From the NCBI GenBank assembly GCA_017964405.1, contig JAGCSA010000042.1, positions 1,738 through 65,737 of the forward strand: a stretch of DNA of 64,000 nt. The letters run 5' to 3'. The DNA comes from Bacilli bacterium. GTDB lineage: Bacteria > Bacillota_I > Bacilli_A > RF39 > UBA660. Of this stretch, positions 16,754 to 49,703 are shown piece by piece. The notes under the pieces were generated by a model. The model made no database searches, was not told where the DNA came from, and saw only the letters and a list, made by a program, of their open reading frames with translations. How positions within the stretch are numbered: the stretch's first letter is position 1; each line of letters opens with the position of its first letter. The translations under genes were made by a program, and so were the position numbers.

Positions 16754-17366
16754 TTTTCGATTCCCCCTTAAAATGATCCCTGACAAGTGAAATAACGATT
16801 AATAAAATAAATAGAGATAGACAGTATCCTCCTAAAACATCACTTGGATAATGAACTCCTACATAAATTCTACTGAATCCAATCAGTAAGATCAGGATTG
16901 TTAATAGAATCGTCCAAAAGACTTTCCAATTCTTTTTCTTTAATTTTGTCCATACAAAGTAAATTAATACTCCTCCCATACAAAGAGAAATCATCGAATG
17001 TCCACTTGGGAAGGAAAATCCTCCTTGTGAAATTAAATGAATGTCTAGGGGAGGTCTTGGTCTTTCTATCATGTGTTTGATTCCTTGATTTAATCCTACT
17101 GTTGCGGCAACGGATGATAAAATAAGGATTCTATCTCTCCACTGATAAAATGCTAATAATAAAATAATGGTAATTATAATTACTGGGATGGTATCTCCTA
17201 TATGAGTAAAATTGGTAAAGAATGCTGTTAGAAGGGGATTTCTTAGATTTAATACCCCATCTCCTATCATAGTATCAAAACTTGTTATCTCATTTGTTAA
17301 AACAAGAATCGTTATGATTAAAAATCCTATCAAAGAAAGACAGGCTATTGTCATTCTTTTGGTCAT
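16731..17366 (-). CDS. PAP2-family membrane phosphatase (undecaprenyl-diphosphatase-like)
   Basis: 211 aa. KxxxxxxRP, PSGHS and SRIYVGVHYPSD motifs. Polytopic. Confidence 0.75.
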   Translation of the reverse strand: MTKRMTIACLSLIGFLIITILVLTNEITSFDTMIGDGVLNLRNPLLTAFFTNFTHIGDTIPVIIITIILLLAFYQWRDRILILSSVAATVGLNQGIKHMIERPRPPLDIHLISQGGFSFPSGHSMISLCMGGVLIYFVWTKLKKKNWKVFWTILLTILILLIGFSRIYVGVHYPSDVLGGYCLSLFILLIVISLVRDHFKGESKNDKDDSL

Positions 17367-17370
17367 TCTA

Positions 17371-28973: not shown

Positions 28974-29065
28974 TGGCGGAGTAGGAGAGATTTGAACTCT
29001 CGCATCAGTATTCCCGATCTACACCCTTAGCAGGGGCGCCTCTTCAGCCTCTTGAGTACTACTCC
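28974..29065 (-). tRNA. tRNA-Ser (anticodon GCT), encoded CCA
   Basis: Hand fold: acceptor GGAGTAG/CTACTCC, anticodon loop CT-GCT-AA, long variable arm. Confidence 0.9.
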
Positions 29066-29132
29066 AACTCAAATTGCGTCCGTATCTATATTATTGCATT
29101 TTAAGGCTTAAAAGTCAACAAAAAAAGAAGAT

Positions 29133-29411
29133 TTATTGCTCTTCTGTTTTTTTCATATTTTCAATAAAAGTTTCTAAATTTGACTCTTGTTGGTGGAAGG
29201 TTTCTACGATAGCTGGGAAGTCTTCTCGAAGATTTTCCCACTTCTCTTTCCATAGTTTTGCTGAATCAGAATCCCATACTCCATTTCCAGTATTAATATT
29301 TTCTTTTACTAAGATATCTGCGTTCTGAAAACTTTTTTCCACTTTTTCTGTTAATTCTTTGATTTTCGCAAGTGATTTTGATAATTCTACCATTTGTAAA
29401 TTCTCTATCAT
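29133..29411 (-). CDS. small helical-hairpin protein, WXG100-like
   Basis: 92 aa, all-helical and charged, with a central GVWDSDSA turn. RBS GGGGGAG. Confidence 0.35.
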   Translation of the reverse strand: MIENLQMVELSKSLAKIKELTEKVEKSFQNADILVKENINTGNGVWDSDSAKLWKEKWENLREDFPAIVETFHQQESNLETFIENMKKTEEQ

Positions 29412-29423
29412 ACTCTACTCCCC

Positions 29424-29723
29424 CTACTCAAAATTATTCTCTGATTGGAGACTTGCTTCTTCTAGTCCCAATTTTTTAGCTTCTAGGGTGTCAATTAATT
29501 CTTTCATCATGTTTTCTACTGTATTTAGTTTTTCTTTCTTTTCATCGAATTTTCCTTTGAACTCATTGTAAAGAGATGCATTGGTCATTCCCCAAATCAT
29601 AGCTAGTCTTTGGATTTCCGTATTGAGGAAAAGAACGGATTCCCGATATTCTTGATAGTATTCTTTTAAGTTTTCTTCTACTTCTTGTAGTTTTTCTGTA
29701 TTAAATGCTAGATGATCATTCAT
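29424..29723 (-). CDS. small helical-hairpin protein, WXG100-like
   Basis: Start at MNDHLAF (RBS GGGAG), 99 aa, central MIWGMTNAS turn. Confidence 0.35.
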   Translation of the reverse strand: MNDHLAFNTEKLQEVEENLKEYYQEYRESVLFLNTEIQRLAMIWGMTNASLYNEFKGKFDEKKEKLNTVENMMKELIDTLEAKKLGLEEASLQSENNFE

Positions 29724-29750
29724 TTTATCACTCCCGTCATCATTATAGCA

Positions 29751-29775
29751 CAAAAAAACCGTTCATAGAACGGTA
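29751..29775 (-). terminator. terminator after the tRNA-Ile/Asn/Glu operon
   Basis: ACCGTTC-tat-GAACGGT followed by T7 on the minus strand. Confidence 0.75.
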
Positions 29776-29785
29776 CTTTTTCAAA

Positions 29786-29862
29786 TGGTGACGAGTACGG
29801 AATTCGAATCCGTGTATGCTGCCGTGAAAGGGCAGTGTGTTAAGCCGCTTCACCAACTCGCC
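29786..29862 (-). tRNA. tRNA-Glu (anticodon TTC)
   Basis: Hand fold: anticodon stem CTGCC/GGCAG, loop CT-TTC-AC, CCA encoded. Confidence 0.9.
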
Positions 29863-29871
29863 ATTTAAAAA

Positions 29872-29948
29872 TGGCGCCCCAACTAGGACTTGAACCTAGG
29901 ACCCCTTGATTAACAGTCAAGTGCTCTAACCAGCTGAGCTATTGAGGC
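29872..29948 (-). tRNA. tRNA-Asn (anticodon GTT)
   Basis: Hand fold: loop CT-GTT-AA between CTTGA/TCAAG, CCA encoded. Confidence 0.9.
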
Positions 29949-29955
29949 AAAAAAA

Positions 29956-30032
<77 letters not shown>

Positions 30033-30233
30033 GTACTAATTCGTACTTCTTAATTTTACTATAAAATCGTTTATTTTGCAACCAAAAAATCATTTTTTTT
30101 ACGGATTTCCGAATTGCAAATATAGAATACAATAAAAAAAGGAGGAAAGTCAAGTCTTTTTTTCGGGAAAAATCATCAAAAATACTTGTCATTTTCTTAT
30201 TTTTGTTATAAAATAAATATGCAATTTGGAAAT

Positions 30234-30309
30234 GGGATGTTAGCTCAGTTGGTAGAGCAACTGACTCTTAATCAGTGGGTCTAGGGTTCGAATCCCTAAC
30301 GTCCCACCA
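30234..30309 (+). tRNA. tRNA-Lys (anticodon CTT)
   Basis: Hand fold: loop CT-CTT-AA between ACTGA/TCAGT, CCA encoded. Confidence 0.9.
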
Positions 30310-38826: not shown

Positions 38827-38888
38827 CCTCATTCCTCCAATAAAAAAACGAACGTGATGTTCGTTATTTTTTATTGGAGTGAATGAGG
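38827..38888. repeat. ~30-bp imperfect inverted repeat; one arm is the 3' end of tRNA-Gly
   Basis: CCTCATTCCTCCAATAAAAAAACGAAC-gtgat-GTTCGTTATTTTTTATTGGAGTGAATGAGG. The inner AACGAAC/GTTCGTT core plus T-run acts as the tRNA operon terminator. Confidence 0.7.
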
Positions 38889-38949
38889 GGAATTGAACCC
38901 CCATCACAGCCTTGGCAAGGCCGTATTCTGACCATTGAACCACATTCAC
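38875..38949 (-). tRNA. tRNA-Gly (anticodon GCC)
   Basis: Hand fold: loop TT-GCC-AA, discriminator T, CCA encoded. Confidence 0.9.
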
Positions 38950-38954
38950 ATTAT

Positions 38955-39028
38955 TGGAGGGGCCTACCGGATTTGAACCGGTGATCAGGGTGTTGCAGAC
39001 CCACGCCTTACCGCTTGGCTAAAGCCCC
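38955..39028 (-). tRNA. tRNA-Cys (anticodon GCA)
   Basis: Hand fold: loop CT-GCA-AC, discriminator T, CCA encoded. Confidence 0.9.
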
Positions 39029-43035: not shown

Positions 43036-43707
43036 TTAGCTTATCTTCTTAACGAGTTCTCTCACGTTATTTTGCCCTGCCATGATTTCTCTTAAATAGT
43101 CACTACAGTACTGTTCTGGATCTTTGGCACTCATGAGTTTTTTCATGTATTGAATTTCTGTTTGTGAGACACCTGATTTTCTTAAGTCTGATGCAATTAA
43201 CTCTGTCATGAGTAAATGCAATTGGTATTGATTCAGGTCATTCAATTGACGGGTATCTCCTCCCTCAAAGATAGAATGAGCTGCTGGATTAACAATATAT
43301 AATTCTCCATTAAATAACGTATATCCTGGTGTAATTCCATTTAATAAGATATGTTTTTGACTTAAGGTCTCTGTATCTTCTTCTAATACTTCTACATTAT
43401 CAATTAGATCCCATTTAGGAGTCGTTGTAATCCGTTTTCCTGCTCCTTTTTGTGATACTAATTTCATTGTATATCCATGAAAAGCATTATTATAAAATAA
43501 TAGTTTTTTTGGTAATAATATTCGTTTTGTTGTGATTCCTGTAAAATACTTTGCTGTTTCTTCTTCTATTGGCATTTCTCCATCCCTGAATACTCTTAAA
43601 GCAACATTCTTATAACGATAAACATCTCCTGCTTTTGTACTAGGAACAAAGTTTAGTTTTCTTAGACCAGATAATTCTATTTCTCTGTTCTCTAATCGAT
43701 ATCCCAT
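43036..43707 (-). CDS. hypothetical protein
   Basis: 223 aa. A faint kinase-like layout lacks the catalytic Asp residues. Third gene of the operon starting at 46702. Confidence 0.35.
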   Translation of the reverse strand: MGYRLENREIELSGLRKLNFVPSTKAGDVYRYKNVALRVFRDGEMPIEEETAKYFTGITTKRILLPKKLLFYNNAFHGYTMKLVSQKGAGKRITTTPKWDLIDNVEVLEEDTETLSQKHILLNGITPGYTLFNGELYIVNPAAHSIFEGGDTRQLNDLNQYQLHLLMTELIASDLRKSGVSQTEIQYMKKLMSAKDPEQYCSDYLREIMAGQNNVRELVKKIS

Positions 43708-43742: not shown

Positions 43743-44339
43743 TCATCTGTAGAAGTTGGAAACAAATTTTGCAAATCCATATAAAATAATCGAACTTTTA
43801 TTAATCGCAAAACTTTTTCCGATGGCTTTTCCCCCGATTGTTAGAGAGGCTATAATAGCAGCCACTATGAGAGAAGTAATCAATAATTCTGTATGATATT
43901 CCGTTACTAAAATGGCCGTTATGGCAGTTCCTGCTGCACCAGATACAATTCCACAGACATCTCCTATGACATCACAGCAGAAACTAGAAACTTTATCTGC
44001 GTTCTTTTTAAATTTAACGGCTACACTTGCTCCTTTTACTTTTCTAGAACTCATGGAGTGAAAAATAGCTTCTTCTGCAGAAGTAACGGATACTCCAATA
44101 ATATCAAATAAGATTCCTAATAAAATAAAGAGAATCGTTATGATAATTCCTAACCATAAATGGAAATTCGGAATGGTCATTTGAGAAATAAAGGACATAC
44201 CAAAAGAGATGAAAAAGGAAACGATTAAAATAATCGTAATCCATTTCCAATCTACTTTTTCCTTTTTAATTTTTTCTTTTTTCTTTGTTACTTCAATTAA
44301 GTTCTTGAATTCACTTTGATTCTTTTCTTTTCCATTCAT
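43743..44339 (-). CDS. hypothetical polytopic membrane protein
   Basis: 198 aa with 4-5 TM helices. Its start overlaps the upstream stop (TAATG), implying translational coupling. Confidence 0.45.
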   Translation of the reverse strand: MNGKEKNQSEFKNLIEVTKKKEKIKKEKVDWKWITIILIVSFFISFGMSFISQMTIPNFHLWLGIIITILFILLGILFDIIGVSVTSAEEAIFHSMSSRKVKGASVAVKFKKNADKVSSFCCDVIGDVCGIVSGAAGTAITAILVTEYHTELLITSLIVAAIIASLTIGGKAIGKSFAINKSSIILYGFAKFVSNFYR

Positions 44340-46702
44340 TATAATCGATAACCTACTTCCTCATTATATCTTTCTACTGGATCTCCTAACATATCTTGTA
44401 ATTCTTGTTGACGATTGGCAGAAAGATTTTTCTCTATTACTTTCGTAAGAGAACTTGCGAAGAATAAGGACATTCTTGGATCTTCTGGATTGACTAACAT
44501 TTTTTTATCTTCTTCTGTTACAAATGGATTATCTTTTTCAAAAGATGGAACTTCTTCTTGATTCTGATAAGCATCTCCTACTTGTACATAGTAATCATAA
44601 ACTGTAAGTTGATGTTCTTTTACATAAGCTAATAAGTTTTCAATATACGTAGATCCTGGAAAATGTCTTTCATAGAAATCTCTTAAGAATTCTACATATT
44701 CTTCATCTGTTTCATAGATTCCTCTTACTCGTGGTCTATGAATATTGGTACCAGGAATATATTCCTCACTATATTCAAACATATCCTGTAAATCTTTTTT
44801 AGGTTCCGTTTTAGGTGGATTTACGGGTTCTTTTCTTGGTTCTGTTGGTGGTTCTGGCTGAGTTGTTTTTTCTTGTTCTTCCGGTACTTCTTCTTGGAAC
44901 GTTTGATAATACCTTGGTCTTTCTTCTGGTAATTGTGATCGATATTCTTGTATGTTTTCTTGTGTTAGTGGATGAACCTCATATTTTTCACCTTGATGAT
45001 TTCCTCCAATAGCAGGAGTCGCATGAAAGATGGTTTTTCGATCCATAAAACTTCCACCAGCCATTGCACGATAGTGCTCTTTTGCTTCCGGACTCATTCC
45101 TAAAAAATCTGTTACTCGATCAATTGCTTTTAAAATGACCTCTGGAGGAATTCCTTCTAGACGTCCTTCTTCTACGATACGATAAATTGTATCATAGGCA
45201 TCAATTCCCATTCCTTCTTTCGGACCTTCTCCCATCAATTCTAACATTCTAGCAGCATATCCCATTGGTTCATATCCAATTGGATGATAAAACTGTTCAT
45301 AATATAAATTAGTAGGAACTACATGACTATAATACTCTTCCATTGGTAAAACAAGAGCATCTGCTACTGTCATATGTTCATAATCTCCGTGAGAATTTGT
45401 TGATTTTGTTAACTCTCTAGGAGCTACCATAAAATAACTATATGTTGGTAAATTATGATTGCTAGATTGTAGATCAAAGGTAATATCACATACACTGATA
45501 CTATCTACTCCATATTTTTCATCTTGAATTTTTCCTAAGTTTCTAGAATGTCCTGTTGTGGAATAACGGAACATTGGAATTCCTACTCTTCTCAATAAAG
45601 CAGAATATAATGTAGAAAATCCCATACATACCGCTCTTTTTTTACCATTTACTTGGTGATTGATCATTTGACTTAGATTAATATTATCCCATTCATCTGC
45701 AAAATCTGCATCTGGATCATAAATATACTCTGAATCAATGATGATTTTTGCTAGTACTGCAGCTTCTAGAGGAGATAGATTTCCTTCTTGTACCATCTGT
45801 TCAAAAGAATGAACTTCTTTTAATACATTTAAATAATTTCGAAGAGAAGTTTTTCCTCCACCTTCTATTTGAGAATAATATAATCTATTTTCACAATATG
45901 GCTCTTTTGTATAATTTTCTACCATATCATGACATGTACTATAAACAATATCTATTTCATAAGGATATTTTTCTAATTTACGATATAGATCGATTTGATC
46001 TTGTAATAAATAGCCAATAAACTGAATATTCAATCCTTCTCTTACATGATGTCTTTGTAATCCTTGTAAGAATTCTTCATAATAATTCGGATCAAATACA
46101 TTGAATTCAATAGACGTATCTTCTCCATCATTTACATAGGCTGCTAACGTTTCAAATTCCTCTTCTGATAATCTATGATTGATATGAAAAGAAAATCTTG
46201 TTTCTAGTTCATCAAATGTTTTTCTTCTCTCTAATACGGGTTGATTCATTTGTAAGTCAAATTTAAATACACCTTTTTGAAGAAAAATACGACTATCCCC
46301 TTCCAATTCTGAGATACAATGATCTACTACGATGGTAGATGCAAATGCTAGTTTATTATAATCTTCTCTTGTTAAAACGTATCCTTCATCTGCAATTCGA
46401 ATAATCACTTTTCGATTTTCTTTCTCTATTTTTTGACGAATTGCCTCCATGATTTCAGTATCTTCTAGTATTGTTTGATCAATCACTAAAGTGGATGAAA
46501 AATGAATATTATCATTTTGGAGATTTTCTAATATAATGTCTCTAAAAAATTCTATATTTGGATTCGTACTCATTTGAAAATAACGAATTCCTAATTGTTC
46601 ATGTTGATTTAATCTTAAATTTCCTCCTACTTCTACCGGATTCATCTTTTTTGGATCTGATAAAATGGAAGTAACATAACCTGACATATCGTCTTCTATC
46701 AT
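44339..46702 (-). CDS. large cytoplasmic protein with a transglutaminase-like Cys-His-Asp core
   Basis: 787 aa. KKRAVCMGFSTLYSALLRRVGIP...TGHSRNL...VCDITFD resembles the transglutaminase/cysteine-protease core. Pro/Glu-rich linker. Own TGtTATAAT promoter. Confidence 0.45.
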   Translation of the reverse strand: MIEDDMSGYVTSILSDPKKMNPVEVGGNLRLNQHEQLGIRYFQMSTNPNIEFFRDIILENLQNDNIHFSSTLVIDQTILEDTEIMEAIRQKIEKENRKVIIRIADEGYVLTREDYNKLAFASTIVVDHCISELEGDSRIFLQKGVFKFDLQMNQPVLERRKTFDELETRFSFHINHRLSEEEFETLAAYVNDGEDTSIEFNVFDPNYYEEFLQGLQRHHVREGLNIQFIGYLLQDQIDLYRKLEKYPYEIDIVYSTCHDMVENYTKEPYCENRLYYSQIEGGGKTSLRNYLNVLKEVHSFEQMVQEGNLSPLEAAVLAKIIIDSEYIYDPDADFADEWDNINLSQMINHQVNGKKRAVCMGFSTLYSALLRRVGIPMFRYSTTGHSRNLGKIQDEKYGVDSISVCDITFDLQSSNHNLPTYSYFMVAPRELTKSTNSHGDYEHMTVADALVLPMEEYYSHVVPTNLYYEQFYHPIGYEPMGYAARMLELMGEGPKEGMGIDAYDTIYRIVEEGRLEGIPPEVILKAIDRVTDFLGMSPEAKEHYRAMAGGSFMDRKTIFHATPAIGGNHQGEKYEVHPLTQENIQEYRSQLPEERPRYYQTFQEEVPEEQEKTTQPEPPTEPRKEPVNPPKTEPKKDLQDMFEYSEEYIPGTNIHRPRVRGIYETDEEYVEFLRDFYERHFPGSTYIENLLAYVKEHQLTVYDYYVQVGDAYQNQEEVPSFEKDNPFVTEEDKKMLVNPEDPRMSLFFASSLTKVIEKNLSANRQQELQDMLGDPVERYNEEVGYRL

Positions 46703-46732
46703 ATAGCATCACCTACTTATTCTCATTATAAC

Positions 46733-46757
46733 AAAAAAAAAGTAGTTACACTACTTT
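46733..46757 (-). terminator. intrinsic terminator ending the ncRNA candidate
   Basis: AAAGTAG-tgtaa-CTACTTT followed by a run of T residues on the minus strand. Confidence 0.6.
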
Positions 46758-47355
46758 AATTTTTTAATTGTTTGGCTTTCATAATAATTAACTTTGAGCC
46801 TTAGGTCAAGTAGGATTTCCCTGATTCTTACAAATCCGTTACCAGATTTGCGGTTCCCCTTTACTAGAATCAATATGGCGTTACCAATCCATACGACTTG
46901 ATTACCACTTAGTGCCCACTGCAATCCTATTACAAATACACTCTAGGAGATTTCCTCACCATTCTCTATTAATAGTCCTTTTTTGCAAAAGTCATTTCAA
47001 AATGCAATACTAACTACAAGTGGCCGCTTATAATTAGCTGTCGTTTATCCCAGAACTTCCACTCAAGACAGGCTACACTGCACATAGCTTGCGCCACATT
47101 ACAGGTTCTAATCCCATTTCGTAATAAATCATCAGATGTTGTCCGTATAGATTTACCACAAGAACAGGTCTCCACGAATAGTGGGTCGAGATTCATATGC
47201 CATTATGAGTCGCCCAAAATTCTCATCTCCAGCATCCACCCCAAACTGGGCGTAAGAAGCAGACACCAAAGGTTTCACAGATATGCCCTTTAACGATTTT
47301 TTAAACTCGTCTTCCTAATAGAGTAATTGACTAGAATAATGTGCCATCAATTACA
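46733..47355 (-). ncRNA. large (~620 nt) structured ncRNA candidate, class unassigned
   Basis: 700-bp ORF-poor gap. Hand-counted GC is 33-52% per 60-nt line against 27% in the adjacent CDS. Consensus promoter and terminator. 8-bp 5' hairpin GTAATTGA/TCAATTAC. Three GNRA-capped hairpins (GCAAATCTG-GTAA-CGGATTTGT, TATGG..TG-GTAA-CG-CCATA, ATGTGGC-GCAA-GCTATGT). Confidence 0.7.
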
Positions 47356-47361
47356 TATGTA

Positions 47362-47390
47362 ATTATATCATATTTTCAAAAAAATGTCAA
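47362..47390 (-). promoter_or_regulatory. consensus sigma-A promoter TTGACA-17-TATAAT driving the ncRNA candidate
   Basis: Minus strand: TTGACA (47385-47390), a 17-nt spacer, TATAAT (47362-47367). A second TTGACA lies 9 bp upstream. Confidence 0.8.
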
Positions 47391-47405
47391 ATGTGTCAAG
47401 TACGA

Positions 47406-49703
47406 TTATCGACCTAAAAACTCTTTTAAAATATTGATATTCTTTTCCATCTCTTCTATATAGTTTCTATGATTTCTTCTAATAAAATCAATATTTCCTG
47501 CACGACTTTCTTTTTCTAATATATCGGATAATTCAGCTAGTTTTGTCATTCCCATATATTTCGCATCTCCCTTAACAGCATGGGCAATTACACTATAATT
47601 ATTCATGTTGTTATTATCGAGATATGTCTTCAATAATTCTATCTTTTCACTCGAATCATCTACGATATCTCCTGCTGTATCTGTATAGATTTTCATATCA
47701 ATTAAAGTCTCTAATGCTTTTTCAATATCAAATCCATTTTCTTCTAGGAATGCTCTATTTCCTTTTTTACTTTCTCTTAGATGTAATTCTTGTGTTGTCT
47801 CCAAGAATTCAATATCTTCTTTTGGTTCTTCTGGTGGTTCTTCTTTTCCAAAGAAATCAATTAATAATTCCTCTAATAAAATCTTATCAAGAGGTTTGGA
47901 TAAGTATCCATCAAATCCTACTTTTAAATATTGTTCTTTCATACCTGATAAGGCATTTGCTGTTAATACAACCATAGGGGTATGGAAGTTTGGTTCTTGT
48001 TTTAATTGCTTCATAACAGCAATTCCTGTGATATCTGGCATTTGATCATCAATCATAATCAAATCATATTTCTTATATTCATGTACTTTTTCAATACATT
48101 CTGGACCACTCGTCGCATAATCAATTTTTAAATTATAGTTTTTCATTAGACGATTGGCTACTTTTAAATTTACATGATTATCATCTACAATTAGGATTCT
48201 TTCTCCATGTCCTTTGAAATGGAATTGTTTCGATTCTCCTACTGTTTTTTCTACTTCTTCTAATTTCTTATGACTAATCTTTTGATATAGTCTTACTGTG
48301 AAAGTAGATCCTTCATTATATTTACTCTCTACCTGAATATCACCATGCATTAAATCTACTAATTGTTTGGTTAAAGCAAGTCCTAGACCTGTTCCTTCAA
48401 TATTATTATTCTTTTGAGTATCAAGTCTAGAAAATTTAGAGAATAGCTTTTTCAAATCTTCTGGTTTAATACCAATTCCAGAATCTTTTACAGAGATTAC
48501 TAATACTCCATTTTCTTCATCTGTTTTTTCAAAATCCATTTTTAAACTGACATATCCTTCTTTTGTATACTTAATGGAGTTTGTTAAAAGATTGATAATG
48601 ATTTGTTTAATTCGATTGGCATCTCCAATTAATACAGGAGGAATATTAGGATTCATTTCATGAATAAATTGAATTTTCTTATCTCCAATTCTTCCTTCTG
48701 TTAACATGACTAGGTATTTATATACTTTTTGAATGCCATAATCTCCTTCAATAATTTCTAATTTATTGGATTCGATCTTTGATAAATCTAAGATTTCATT
48801 TACTAATTCTAATAAAGTATCTGATGCCGTCATAATATTATCTACATCTTCTTTTACCATTGGATCTAGATCTTCTTCTAATAGACCTTGCGAGAATCCT
48901 AAAATAGCATTTAATGGGGTTCTTAACTCATGAGAAACATTCGATAGATAATCTGTTTTTGCTTCAGATGCTCTTAAAGCATAATTTCTTTCTTTCTCTA
49001 ATATTTTCATTGATTTTTGATCACTATTTTCTACGGAGAATACAGAGAAGTACATAATGGCAATCGAGAAAATCATGGCAGAAGTCAGTAATAGAATTCC
49101 AGGATTCACAATTTGAACAATCATGGCAAATCCACTGAGAATAATAGCTCCTAATAATGGTAATACTTGTCTTGTTTCCATTCGACGAATCCGAATGAAT
49201 AATAAAGACATACAGAAGATAATACTAAGGGCTCCTACTAGGTAGGTCTCTGTTGTTGCTAGTCCATAAGAATACATAATATTCGTACCTTCTGTATAGA
49301 TTTCAATTGGGGATACAAAGATTAAAACCCCTATTAATAAGAATAAAACAAATATGATGTCTCTTACTCTTTTATATTTGACTAGCTTTTCTTCTGTTGT
49401 TTTATCGACATTGGTTACAATAATCGCATATTCCATATAGAGAATACAAAAACCAATTAACGTTAATAAATAGGCTTTTGCTGTTAGAATCGTTGCCGTT
49501 GATCCTGGTATTTGGAATGCACATACAATCGATGCAATATCCATTAAAGCACTCAAAAAACCCACAATTACTAAATTGCGGAATATATGGTTTTCAGCAC
49601 ACTCAATTTTTTTGTTTATAATAAAAACAATTCCAATTAGTGTCACATAGAATAAAGATATTATTTGAAAAAATGTATTTTCATATAATACCATTCTAAC
49701 CAC
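47406..49703 (-). CDS. hybrid sensor histidine kinase (multi-TM sensor + HisKA/HATPase + REC + HPt)
   Basis: 765 aa. H-box SHELRTPLNAILGF, DSGIGI/GTGLGL, REC ILIVDDNHVN...MIDDQMPD, HPt HAVKGDAKYMG. Confidence 0.85.
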   Translation of the reverse strand: MVRMVLYENTFFQIISLFYVTLIGIVFIINKKIECAENHIFRNLVIVGFLSALMDIASIVCAFQIPGSTATILTAKAYLLTLIGFCILYMEYAIIVTNVDKTTEEKLVKYKRVRDIIFVLFLLIGVLIFVSPIEIYTEGTNIMYSYGLATTETYLVGALSIIFCMSLLFIRIRRMETRQVLPLLGAIILSGFAMIVQIVNPGILLLTSAMIFSIAIMYFSVFSVENSDQKSMKILEKERNYALRASEAKTDYLSNVSHELRTPLNAILGFSQGLLEEDLDPMVKEDVDNIMTASDTLLELVNEILDLSKIESNKLEIIEGDYGIQKVYKYLVMLTEGRIGDKKIQFIHEMNPNIPPVLIGDANRIKQIIINLLTNSIKYTKEGYVSLKMDFEKTDEENGVLVISVKDSGIGIKPEDLKKLFSKFSRLDTQKNNNIEGTGLGLALTKQLVDLMHGDIQVESKYNEGSTFTVRLYQKISHKKLEEVEKTVGESKQFHFKGHGERILIVDDNHVNLKVANRLMKNYNLKIDYATSGPECIEKVHEYKKYDLIMIDDQMPDITGIAVMKQLKQEPNFHTPMVVLTANALSGMKEQYLKVGFDGYLSKPLDKILLEELLIDFFGKEEPPEEPKEDIEFLETTQELHLRESKKGNRAFLEENGFDIEKALETLIDMKIYTDTAGDIVDDSSEKIELLKTYLDNNNMNNYSVIAHAVKGDAKYMGMTKLAELSDILEKESRAGNIDFIRRNHRNYIEEMEKNINILKEFLGR

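Follow-up and report, generated by a model that had tools for sequence, protein, structure and literature searches.

An OLE RNA gene with a predicted promoter and terminator of its own, and a transglutaminase-like gene between it and oapA, in an uncultured gut or rumen Bacilli bacterium

What is encoded in the longest gap between the genes of a 64-kb window (64,000 nucleotides from a Bacilli bacterium, the whole stretch of DNA analysed here)? The gap, at 46703-47405, is 703 nt long, the median gap in the window being 54 nt, and it is indeed the longest stretch without an ORF or a tRNA, as a first-pass annotation of the bare sequence had stated. The same annotation took the gap to be enriched in G+C, comparing its signature with that of the tRNA genes, of which the window holds seven in two clusters (28977-30306 and 38878-39028). 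This enrichment is real: the RNA described below has 38.3% G+C against 30.9% for the window, and the values given for single 60-nt lines of the gap (up to 0.52, 0.45 and 0.48) were reproduced. A region considered as a second long gap, 16787-17370, is actually a 211-aa PAP2-like ORF, and a permissive Rfam scan of it found nothing.

From these properties, together with a promoter, a terminator and a number of helices, a large structured and independently transcribed non-coding RNA of about 620 nt had been proposed, described as an orphan and as ROOL-like or possibly new. The core of that proposal was correct, as the covariance match, the covariation and the promoter and terminator reported below all indicate, but neither the orphan label nor the suggested kinship survives.

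Identity of the RNA

The whole window was scanned with cmscan against all 4227 Rfam families at their curated gathering thresholds, and the output consisted of the seven tRNAs and one OLE RNA (RF01071), with nothing else. The OLE match scores 380.5 bits (gathering threshold 50, E = 3.1e-108) and is untruncated, running over model positions 1-616 of 616. OLE was among the families that the first-pass annotation had listed for comparison, with the remark that a confident Rfam match would confirm the RNA and remove its novelty; the match to RF01071 does both. The genes of the locus are as follows.

47406-49703, minus strand: hybrid histidine kinase gene upstream of ole, with HisKA, HATPase_c, receiver and HPt domains
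46756..47363, minus strand: OLE RNA gene (ole), full-length type, from the RF01071 covariance model
44339..46702, minus strand: 787-aa transglutaminase-like gene between ole and oapA
43743..44339, minus strand: oapA, encoding OLE-associated protein A, a membrane protein of 198 aa with DxxxD at D123/D127
43036-43707, minus strand: gene for a 223-aa protein, directly downstream of oapA

OLE stands for ornate, large, extremophilic, and the family was first described in 2006. Its members are highly conserved RNAs of about 600 nt that are associated with the membrane and may span it, and their hosts are Bacillota, typically anaerobic or extremophilic ones. To our knowledge, a biochemical activity has been established for no member of the family. 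The present host belongs to the same phylum, its OapA being 100% identical to a protein of a 'Bacilli bacterium' metagenome-assembled genome (MAG).

We therefore consider it nearly certain (probability about 0.97) that the minus strand carries ole at 46756-47363, in a Bacilli bacterium of the gut or rumen known only from uncultured material, and that the product is a full-length OLE RNA, where 'full-length' is a putative class based on how much of the Rfam model is covered. Because the Rfam match is confident and end to end, the RNA is of an already known kind and is neither new nor ROOL-like. As a routine Rfam match, this copy adds very little on the biochemical function of OLE, and the only lead worth noting, a minor one, is that an enzyme gene separates ole from oapA.

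Relatives were collected by a scan for the OapA family with one genome per GTDB species, which gave 52 loci, all of them from uncultured gut or rumen MAGs labelled as Bacilli, Mollicutes or Tenericutes. An OLE homolog was found upstream of oapA in 50 of the 52 by nhmmer with the window RNA, and the two loci without one are contig fragments that have no room for it. In the relatives that were sampled, Rfam likewise calls OLE, with scores of 354-473 bits.

Promoter, terminator and transcription unit

Three signals on the minus strand bear on whether ole is transcribed on its own.

47362..47390, minus strand: sigma-A-type ole promoter, with -35 TTGACA at 47390-47385, a 17-nt spacer and a TG-extended -10 TATAAT at 47367-47362
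46733..46757, minus strand: ole intrinsic terminator, with stem AAAGUAGU/ACUACUUU, loop GUA and then a U-run
46725..46733, minus strand: extended -10 box TGTTATAAT (TGnTATAAT), read from the sequence and present in many relatives after the terminator

The perfect TTGACA-17-TATAAT promoter seen by the first-pass annotation scores 12/12 and has a TG ahead of its -10 box. A promoter scoring at least 11/12 is found at the same position in 36 of the 47 relatives (12/12 in 27 of these 36), and since its position is conserved to this extent, we regard the promoter as more than a chance occurrence. The -10 box of the relatives ends within a few nucleotides of OLE model position 1; from this conserved spacing, transcription is predicted to start at about 47355 (47356-47354), on the first conserved OLE nucleotides.

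The proposed terminator at 46733-46757 has also held up, with its hairpin folding better than shuffled sequence (z = -2.1). A scan for G+C-rich consensus terminators found nothing at the 3′ end of ole, because the hairpin is AT-rich. About 30 relatives carry a hairpin with a T-run at the corresponding site, and their stems differ in sequence and yet stay complementary (AAGTAGA/TCTACTT, ATAGTATT/AATACTAT, GCAGT/ACTGC and GTAACC/GGTTGC); in the closer relatives the hairpin follows the conserved GCCAAACAA by about 20 nt. To judge from these comparisons, the 3′ hairpin looks like one that behaves as a functional intrinsic terminator would.

As for the claim that the next gene has a promoter of its own, it can be called plausible: the extended -10 box TGTTATAAT at 46733..46725 recurs in relatives and is likely the promoter from which the 787-aa gene and oapA are transcribed. 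In the ole-oapA spacers of two other loci (L002:5926-5988 and L034), a TGnTATAAT box ends 6 nt before the oapA ATG and no ribosome-binding site is present, which suggests that the oapA mRNA of some relatives may be leaderless.

On the strength of its conserved promoter and terminator, ole in this subclade reads as an insulated, strongly promoted, stand-alone unit. This differs from Halalkalibacterium halodurans, in which the ole cluster is a single polycistronic transcript (PMC12265935). In distant relatives the hairpin is lacking and oapA begins only 17-40 nt after OLE, and the two are therefore probably co-transcribed there. An autonomous unit of the window type, with a perfect promoter and a covarying terminator, would ease expression or heterologous studies.

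The polycistronic arrangement is also what gives some substance to the best of the competing readings, namely that the region is a long cis-acting 5′ leader which regulates the two genes behind it (that for the 787-aa protein, and oapA), perhaps by letting transcription pass the terminator to a controlled extent, with no free-standing RNA being made. The downstream genes do lie on the same strand, and both the short spacing in distant relatives and the single polycistronic RNA of H. halodurans (PMC12265935) show that such co-transcription occurs in the family. The subclade, however, conserves a hairpin and U-run followed by a TGnTATAAT box, the next gene has a separate ribosome-binding site, and in the organisms studied OLE RNA acts in trans as a component of a ribonucleoprotein. 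We consider the leader reading very unlikely.

Secondary structure and its conservation

When the Rfam structure is projected onto the window RNA, it retains 155 of the 159 consensus pairs, all but 15 of them canonical (140). The sole deletion relative to RF01071 is a small hairpin of 12 nt at model positions 424-435. For covariation, the window RNA was aligned with 47 full-length relatives from uncultured gut Bacilli, giving 48 sequences in which the Rfam structure pairs 87.4% of cells, against 40-46% (about 42%) when the pairing partners are slid by 1-3 columns. Changes on both sides occur in 119 of the 155 pairs, and the observed values were reached by none of 500 shuffles. A lack of compensatory changes in homologous regions had been named beforehand as an outcome that would speak against the RNA; such changes are instead abundant. 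The OLE RNA is real and is under structural selection in this clade, its structure being maintained, as the compensatory stem changes among relatives demonstrate.

The same data weigh against the idea that the region is the relic of an OLE gene that is decaying and no longer works, or of a protein-coding gene that has degraded. The region does overlap short ORFs (41-60 aa) and one small consensus hairpin is missing, but the consensus pairs that remain are canonical in 90% of cases, the substitutions in stems are compensatory, which is the pattern of a selected RNA and unlike that of a decaying gene, related species share both the perfect promoter and the terminator, and OapA is present and intact. 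Such a relic is thus even harder to credit than the leader.

Six helices had been proposed by eye, three of which are Rfam OLE consensus pairs, while the other three can pair and yet are not part of the consensus. The elements needed here are the following.

46873..46894, minus strand: P13 hairpin, Rfam consensus, capped by a GUAA (GNRA) tetraloop and bulged on its 5′ side
46830..46851, minus strand: P14.1 hairpin of 9 bp with a GUAA tetraloop, all 9 pairs in the Rfam consensus
47340-47343 with 47095-47098, minus strand: CACA/UGUG contact, with CACA in the conserved 5′ loop

Of the consensus helices, that at 47082-47099 is a consensus OLE stem, and the two others are P13 and P14.1. The P13 sequence is UAUGG-AU-UG-GUAA-CG-CCAUA (46873-46894), and all pairs of helices 18 and 19 covary; the P13 bulge has 2 nt, as opposed to 1 nt in H. 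halodurans. Helix 21 (the P14.1 element) is 93% paired, with 6 pairs changing on both sides. The octamer that had been seen twice (UGGUAACG, also given as TGGTAACG) is accounted for by the GUAA (GNRA) loops of these two hairpins. In the OLE RNA of H. halodurans, P13 is the primary OapB-binding site and P14.1 the secondary one (PMC7936274), and if this role can be carried over, the two hairpins may be OapB sites here also.

Covariation is weak or absent in the three non-consensus helices, namely the 5′ hairpin at 47323-47354, CGCCCA/UGGGCG and UAGGAUU/AAUCCUA. Across the clade the 5′ hairpin pairs in 74% of cells and shows a few compensatory changes, one pair being GC in 24 sequences and UA in 7. 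The CGCCCA/UGGGCG helix is almost invariant and thus uninformative, and it competes with a consensus UGGG/CCCA stem. UAGGAUU/AAUCCUA was set aside on the same ground, its GAUU/AAUC part being almost invariant in the clade and two of the UAGGAUU positions covarying with their Rfam partners instead.

A contact between the loop of the 5′ hairpin and AAUGUG had also been suggested, and only its 4-bp core, CACA/UGUG, is kept. This core is 94% paired and shows a handful of compensatory cells, among them A-U to G-C changes in 4 sequences. Its UGUG lies within the 5′ strand of the consensus stem at 47082-47099, so that the contact conflicts with a covarying Rfam stem, and the pairing could be an alternative or tertiary contact, or could have arisen by chance.

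Compared with the OLE RNAs of H. halodurans and Clostridium acetobutylicum, the window RNA is alike in its length of about 600 nt, in all major conserved blocks, in 155 of the 159 consensus pairs, in the GNRA hairpins P13 and P14.1 and in J4a/5, which reads AUCUGUGAAAC (consensus AUCGAUGAAG) and is conserved in the clade as AUCUGUGAAAC or AUCGAUGAAAC. In H. halodurans J4a/5 forms a k-turn, and the k-turn at the base of P5 is recognised by OapC. The window RNA differs from both in its AU-rich stems, its overall 38% G+C and the absence of hairpin 424-435.

A survey published in 2024 reported 2,822 OLE matches across the Bacillota, including shortened variants in gut MAGs, of which variant 1 is common in TANB77 and variant 2 in RF39 (PMC11332333). 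These variants share with the window RNA the type of host, namely Bacillota of low G+C content that live in the gut or rumen, are uncultured and are represented by MAGs, but the window RNA is no shortened form: the entire Rfam model is covered and the P13 GNRA loop is retained. Whole stems are lacking in seven of the relatives (L008, L023, L027, L041, L042, L045 and L047), which are probably the shortened variants of that survey (PMC11332333). In several of them the long stem of model positions ~196-253 is missing, as is, in L041, the long hairpin at ~310-365; the window OLE keeps both.

ROOL and GOLLD resemble the window RNA in being large, ornate and G+C-enriched bacterial non-coding RNAs, which form homo-oligomers and are of unknown biochemical function (PMC12286853). 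No sequence or structure match to them is found in the window RNA, and its locus has a chromosomal housekeeping context with conserved synteny. ROOL and GOLLD, in contrast, are typically linked to phages or prophages, and we know of no OapA partner for either. A large structured RNA of some new class, or one related to ROOL, would fit the size, the G+C enrichment, the GNRA-capped hairpins and the Bacillota host, as would several large RNA classes, but it is the least probable reading of all, given an end-to-end OLE match backed by covariation and a whole-window scan in which no ROOL, GOLLD, HEARO, raiA or other large-RNA model matched at its gathering threshold.

OapA, the intervening gene and other neighbours

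The RNA is not an orphan, since its partner is encoded 2.4 kb farther downstream, by oapA, on the same strand. OapA proteins are multi-pass membrane proteins with a CNNM-like fold and a DxxxD motif. A BLASTP comparison with the C. acetobutylicum OapA (taken from the supplement of Kretsch et al. 2025) gives 41% identity for the window protein (E = 7e-28), including the segment FCxDVIGDxxGIVSG. By appearance the window OapA is a four-helix membrane protein with DVIGD at residues 123-127, and the DxxxD pair (D123, D127) is invariant in 25 homologs. No match was obtained with Pfam and NCBIfam at default thresholds for the 198-aa ORF; its homologs number thousands, the closest being the identical MAG protein mentioned above. 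The best PDB matches are weak and are to the CorB CNNM structures 7M1U and 7M1T, the first of which has been overlaid on OapA in a published study (PMC11332333).

In known OLE loci, oapA is the commonest immediate downstream neighbour of ole (PMC12265935, PMC11332333), and it directly follows ole in 48 of the 50 related species. The window agrees with H. halodurans and C. acetobutylicum in having a Bacillota host and an oapA with DxxxD downstream of ole on the same strand, and departs from them in that oapA is not adjacent, a 787-aa transglutaminase-like gene of 2.36 kb and a terminator being placed between the two. Owing to this separation, co-expression of ole and oapA is not guaranteed in the window. 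The arrangement indicates that adjacency is not obligatory, and it presents a candidate accessory protein.

What is known of OLE function comes from experiments in H. halodurans and C. acetobutylicum, covering membrane localisation, the RNA dimer and stress-tolerance phenotypes (PMC12286853, PMC12265935; see also PMC9723947). There, OLE RNA forms a dimer (PMC12286853), is bound by dimeric OapA and is found at the membrane (PMC11332333, PMC12265935), and protection against stress has been shown only in H. halodurans. In the cryo-EM structure the 3′ half of OLE is not resolved (PMC12286853). By analogy with these two organisms, the window RNA of about 620 nt would be made in quantity from its strong promoter, would fold and probably dimerise, and would be bound by dimers of the membrane protein OapA, which would hold it at the cell membrane. 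The resulting ribonucleoprotein might then help the cell to withstand short-chain alcohols, cold, excess Mg2+ and poor carbon sources. In RF39 and TANB77, two gut clades with reduced genomes, OapB and OapC are reported to be mostly lacking, and MpfA is reported to be anticorrelated with OLE (PMC11332333).

The stop codon of the 787-aa gene overlaps the start codon of oapA (ATGA), and from this overlap the two genes are predicted to be translationally coupled. The 787-aa protein has no Pfam or NCBIfam match at default thresholds and belongs to a small family, with 40 proteins found. A weak match to the transglutaminase-like core (PF01841) is seen in 26 of the 27 aligned members, and the residues invariant in the family include a Cys-His-Asp core (C359, H385 and D400/D406). 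In its AlphaFold (AF2) model (pLDDT 84.6), a beta/alpha domain at the N-terminus is followed by the transglutaminase-like core, which a disordered linker rich in Pro/Glu joins to a helical domain at the C-terminus. A sequence search of the PDB with the family profile gave matches at chance level only, a Foldseek search of the whole model against the PDB gave nothing significant (best E = 4.5e-3, to TIM-barrel enzymes), and no RNA-binding domain was recognised.

Four independent loci were examined (L029, L053, L055 and L057), and in each of them a homolog at least 41% identical to the 787-aa protein is encoded between ole and oapA; they share the gene order ole, 787-aa homolog, oapA, 223-aa gene and ABC-F gene. 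The ole-linked proteins of the family are about 780-1020 aa long and have an intact Cys-His-Asp triad. Paralogs of at most 36% identity are located elsewhere, two of them adjoining ffh (SRP54) and one standing beside recombinase and mobilisation genes. Among the 50 related species, an insert of any kind at the ole/oapA site occurs in 2.

It is conceivable that in one sub-lineage of gut Bacilli the 787-aa protein has become part of the OLE ribonucleoprotein, or modifies it, in which case it might act on OapA or might replace OapB and OapC, but we hold this to be improbable. Any functional tie to the OLE particle is speculative, and a neutral insertion, which would have been tolerable once ole had a terminator and oapA a promoter of its own, is the more likely explanation.

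A different insert is found at L028:3949-5998, where the ole/oapA gap holds two other ORFs of 162 aa and 516 aa. The 516-aa ORF has a HopA1-like domain (PF17914, E = 2.7e-9) and also overlaps the oapA start by ATGA. All that this insert has in common with the 787-aa protein is a short C-terminal motif, KPRxR..ETDEEYxxYLxxFY, which was considered as an OLE-specific docking module and then rejected, the motif also being present in the L059 paralog, away from ole.

The two paralogs next to ffh (SRP54), L059:6001-8364 and L061:6001-8322, show 33-36% identity to the 787-aa protein and directly follow ffh. Their cluster includes a DUF87 gene and, in L059, also an ftsY-like gene of the SRP54 family. 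That these paralogs stand beside genes of another membrane-targeted ribonucleoprotein, the SRP, may be a coincidence. On the other side of ole, the hybrid histidine kinase gene has a counterpart in L053 (53% identity) and is absent upstream of ole in L055 and L057.

Downstream of oapA, the 223-aa protein belongs to a clade-restricted family of 111 proteins and has no Pfam or NCBIfam match at default thresholds. Its AlphaFold model (pLDDT 90.9) has a protein-kinase-like fold, with Foldseek matches to Syk, NIK and others (E ~5e-6, TM ~0.5). The window copy carries an Asn (YIVNP) where the family consensus has an Asp (LVDP), and if this Asn aligns with the DFG Asp, as a by-eye alignment has it, this could be a pseudokinase or else a kinase of an atypical kind. 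The gene order oapA, 223-aa gene and ABC-F is found in about half of the related loci.
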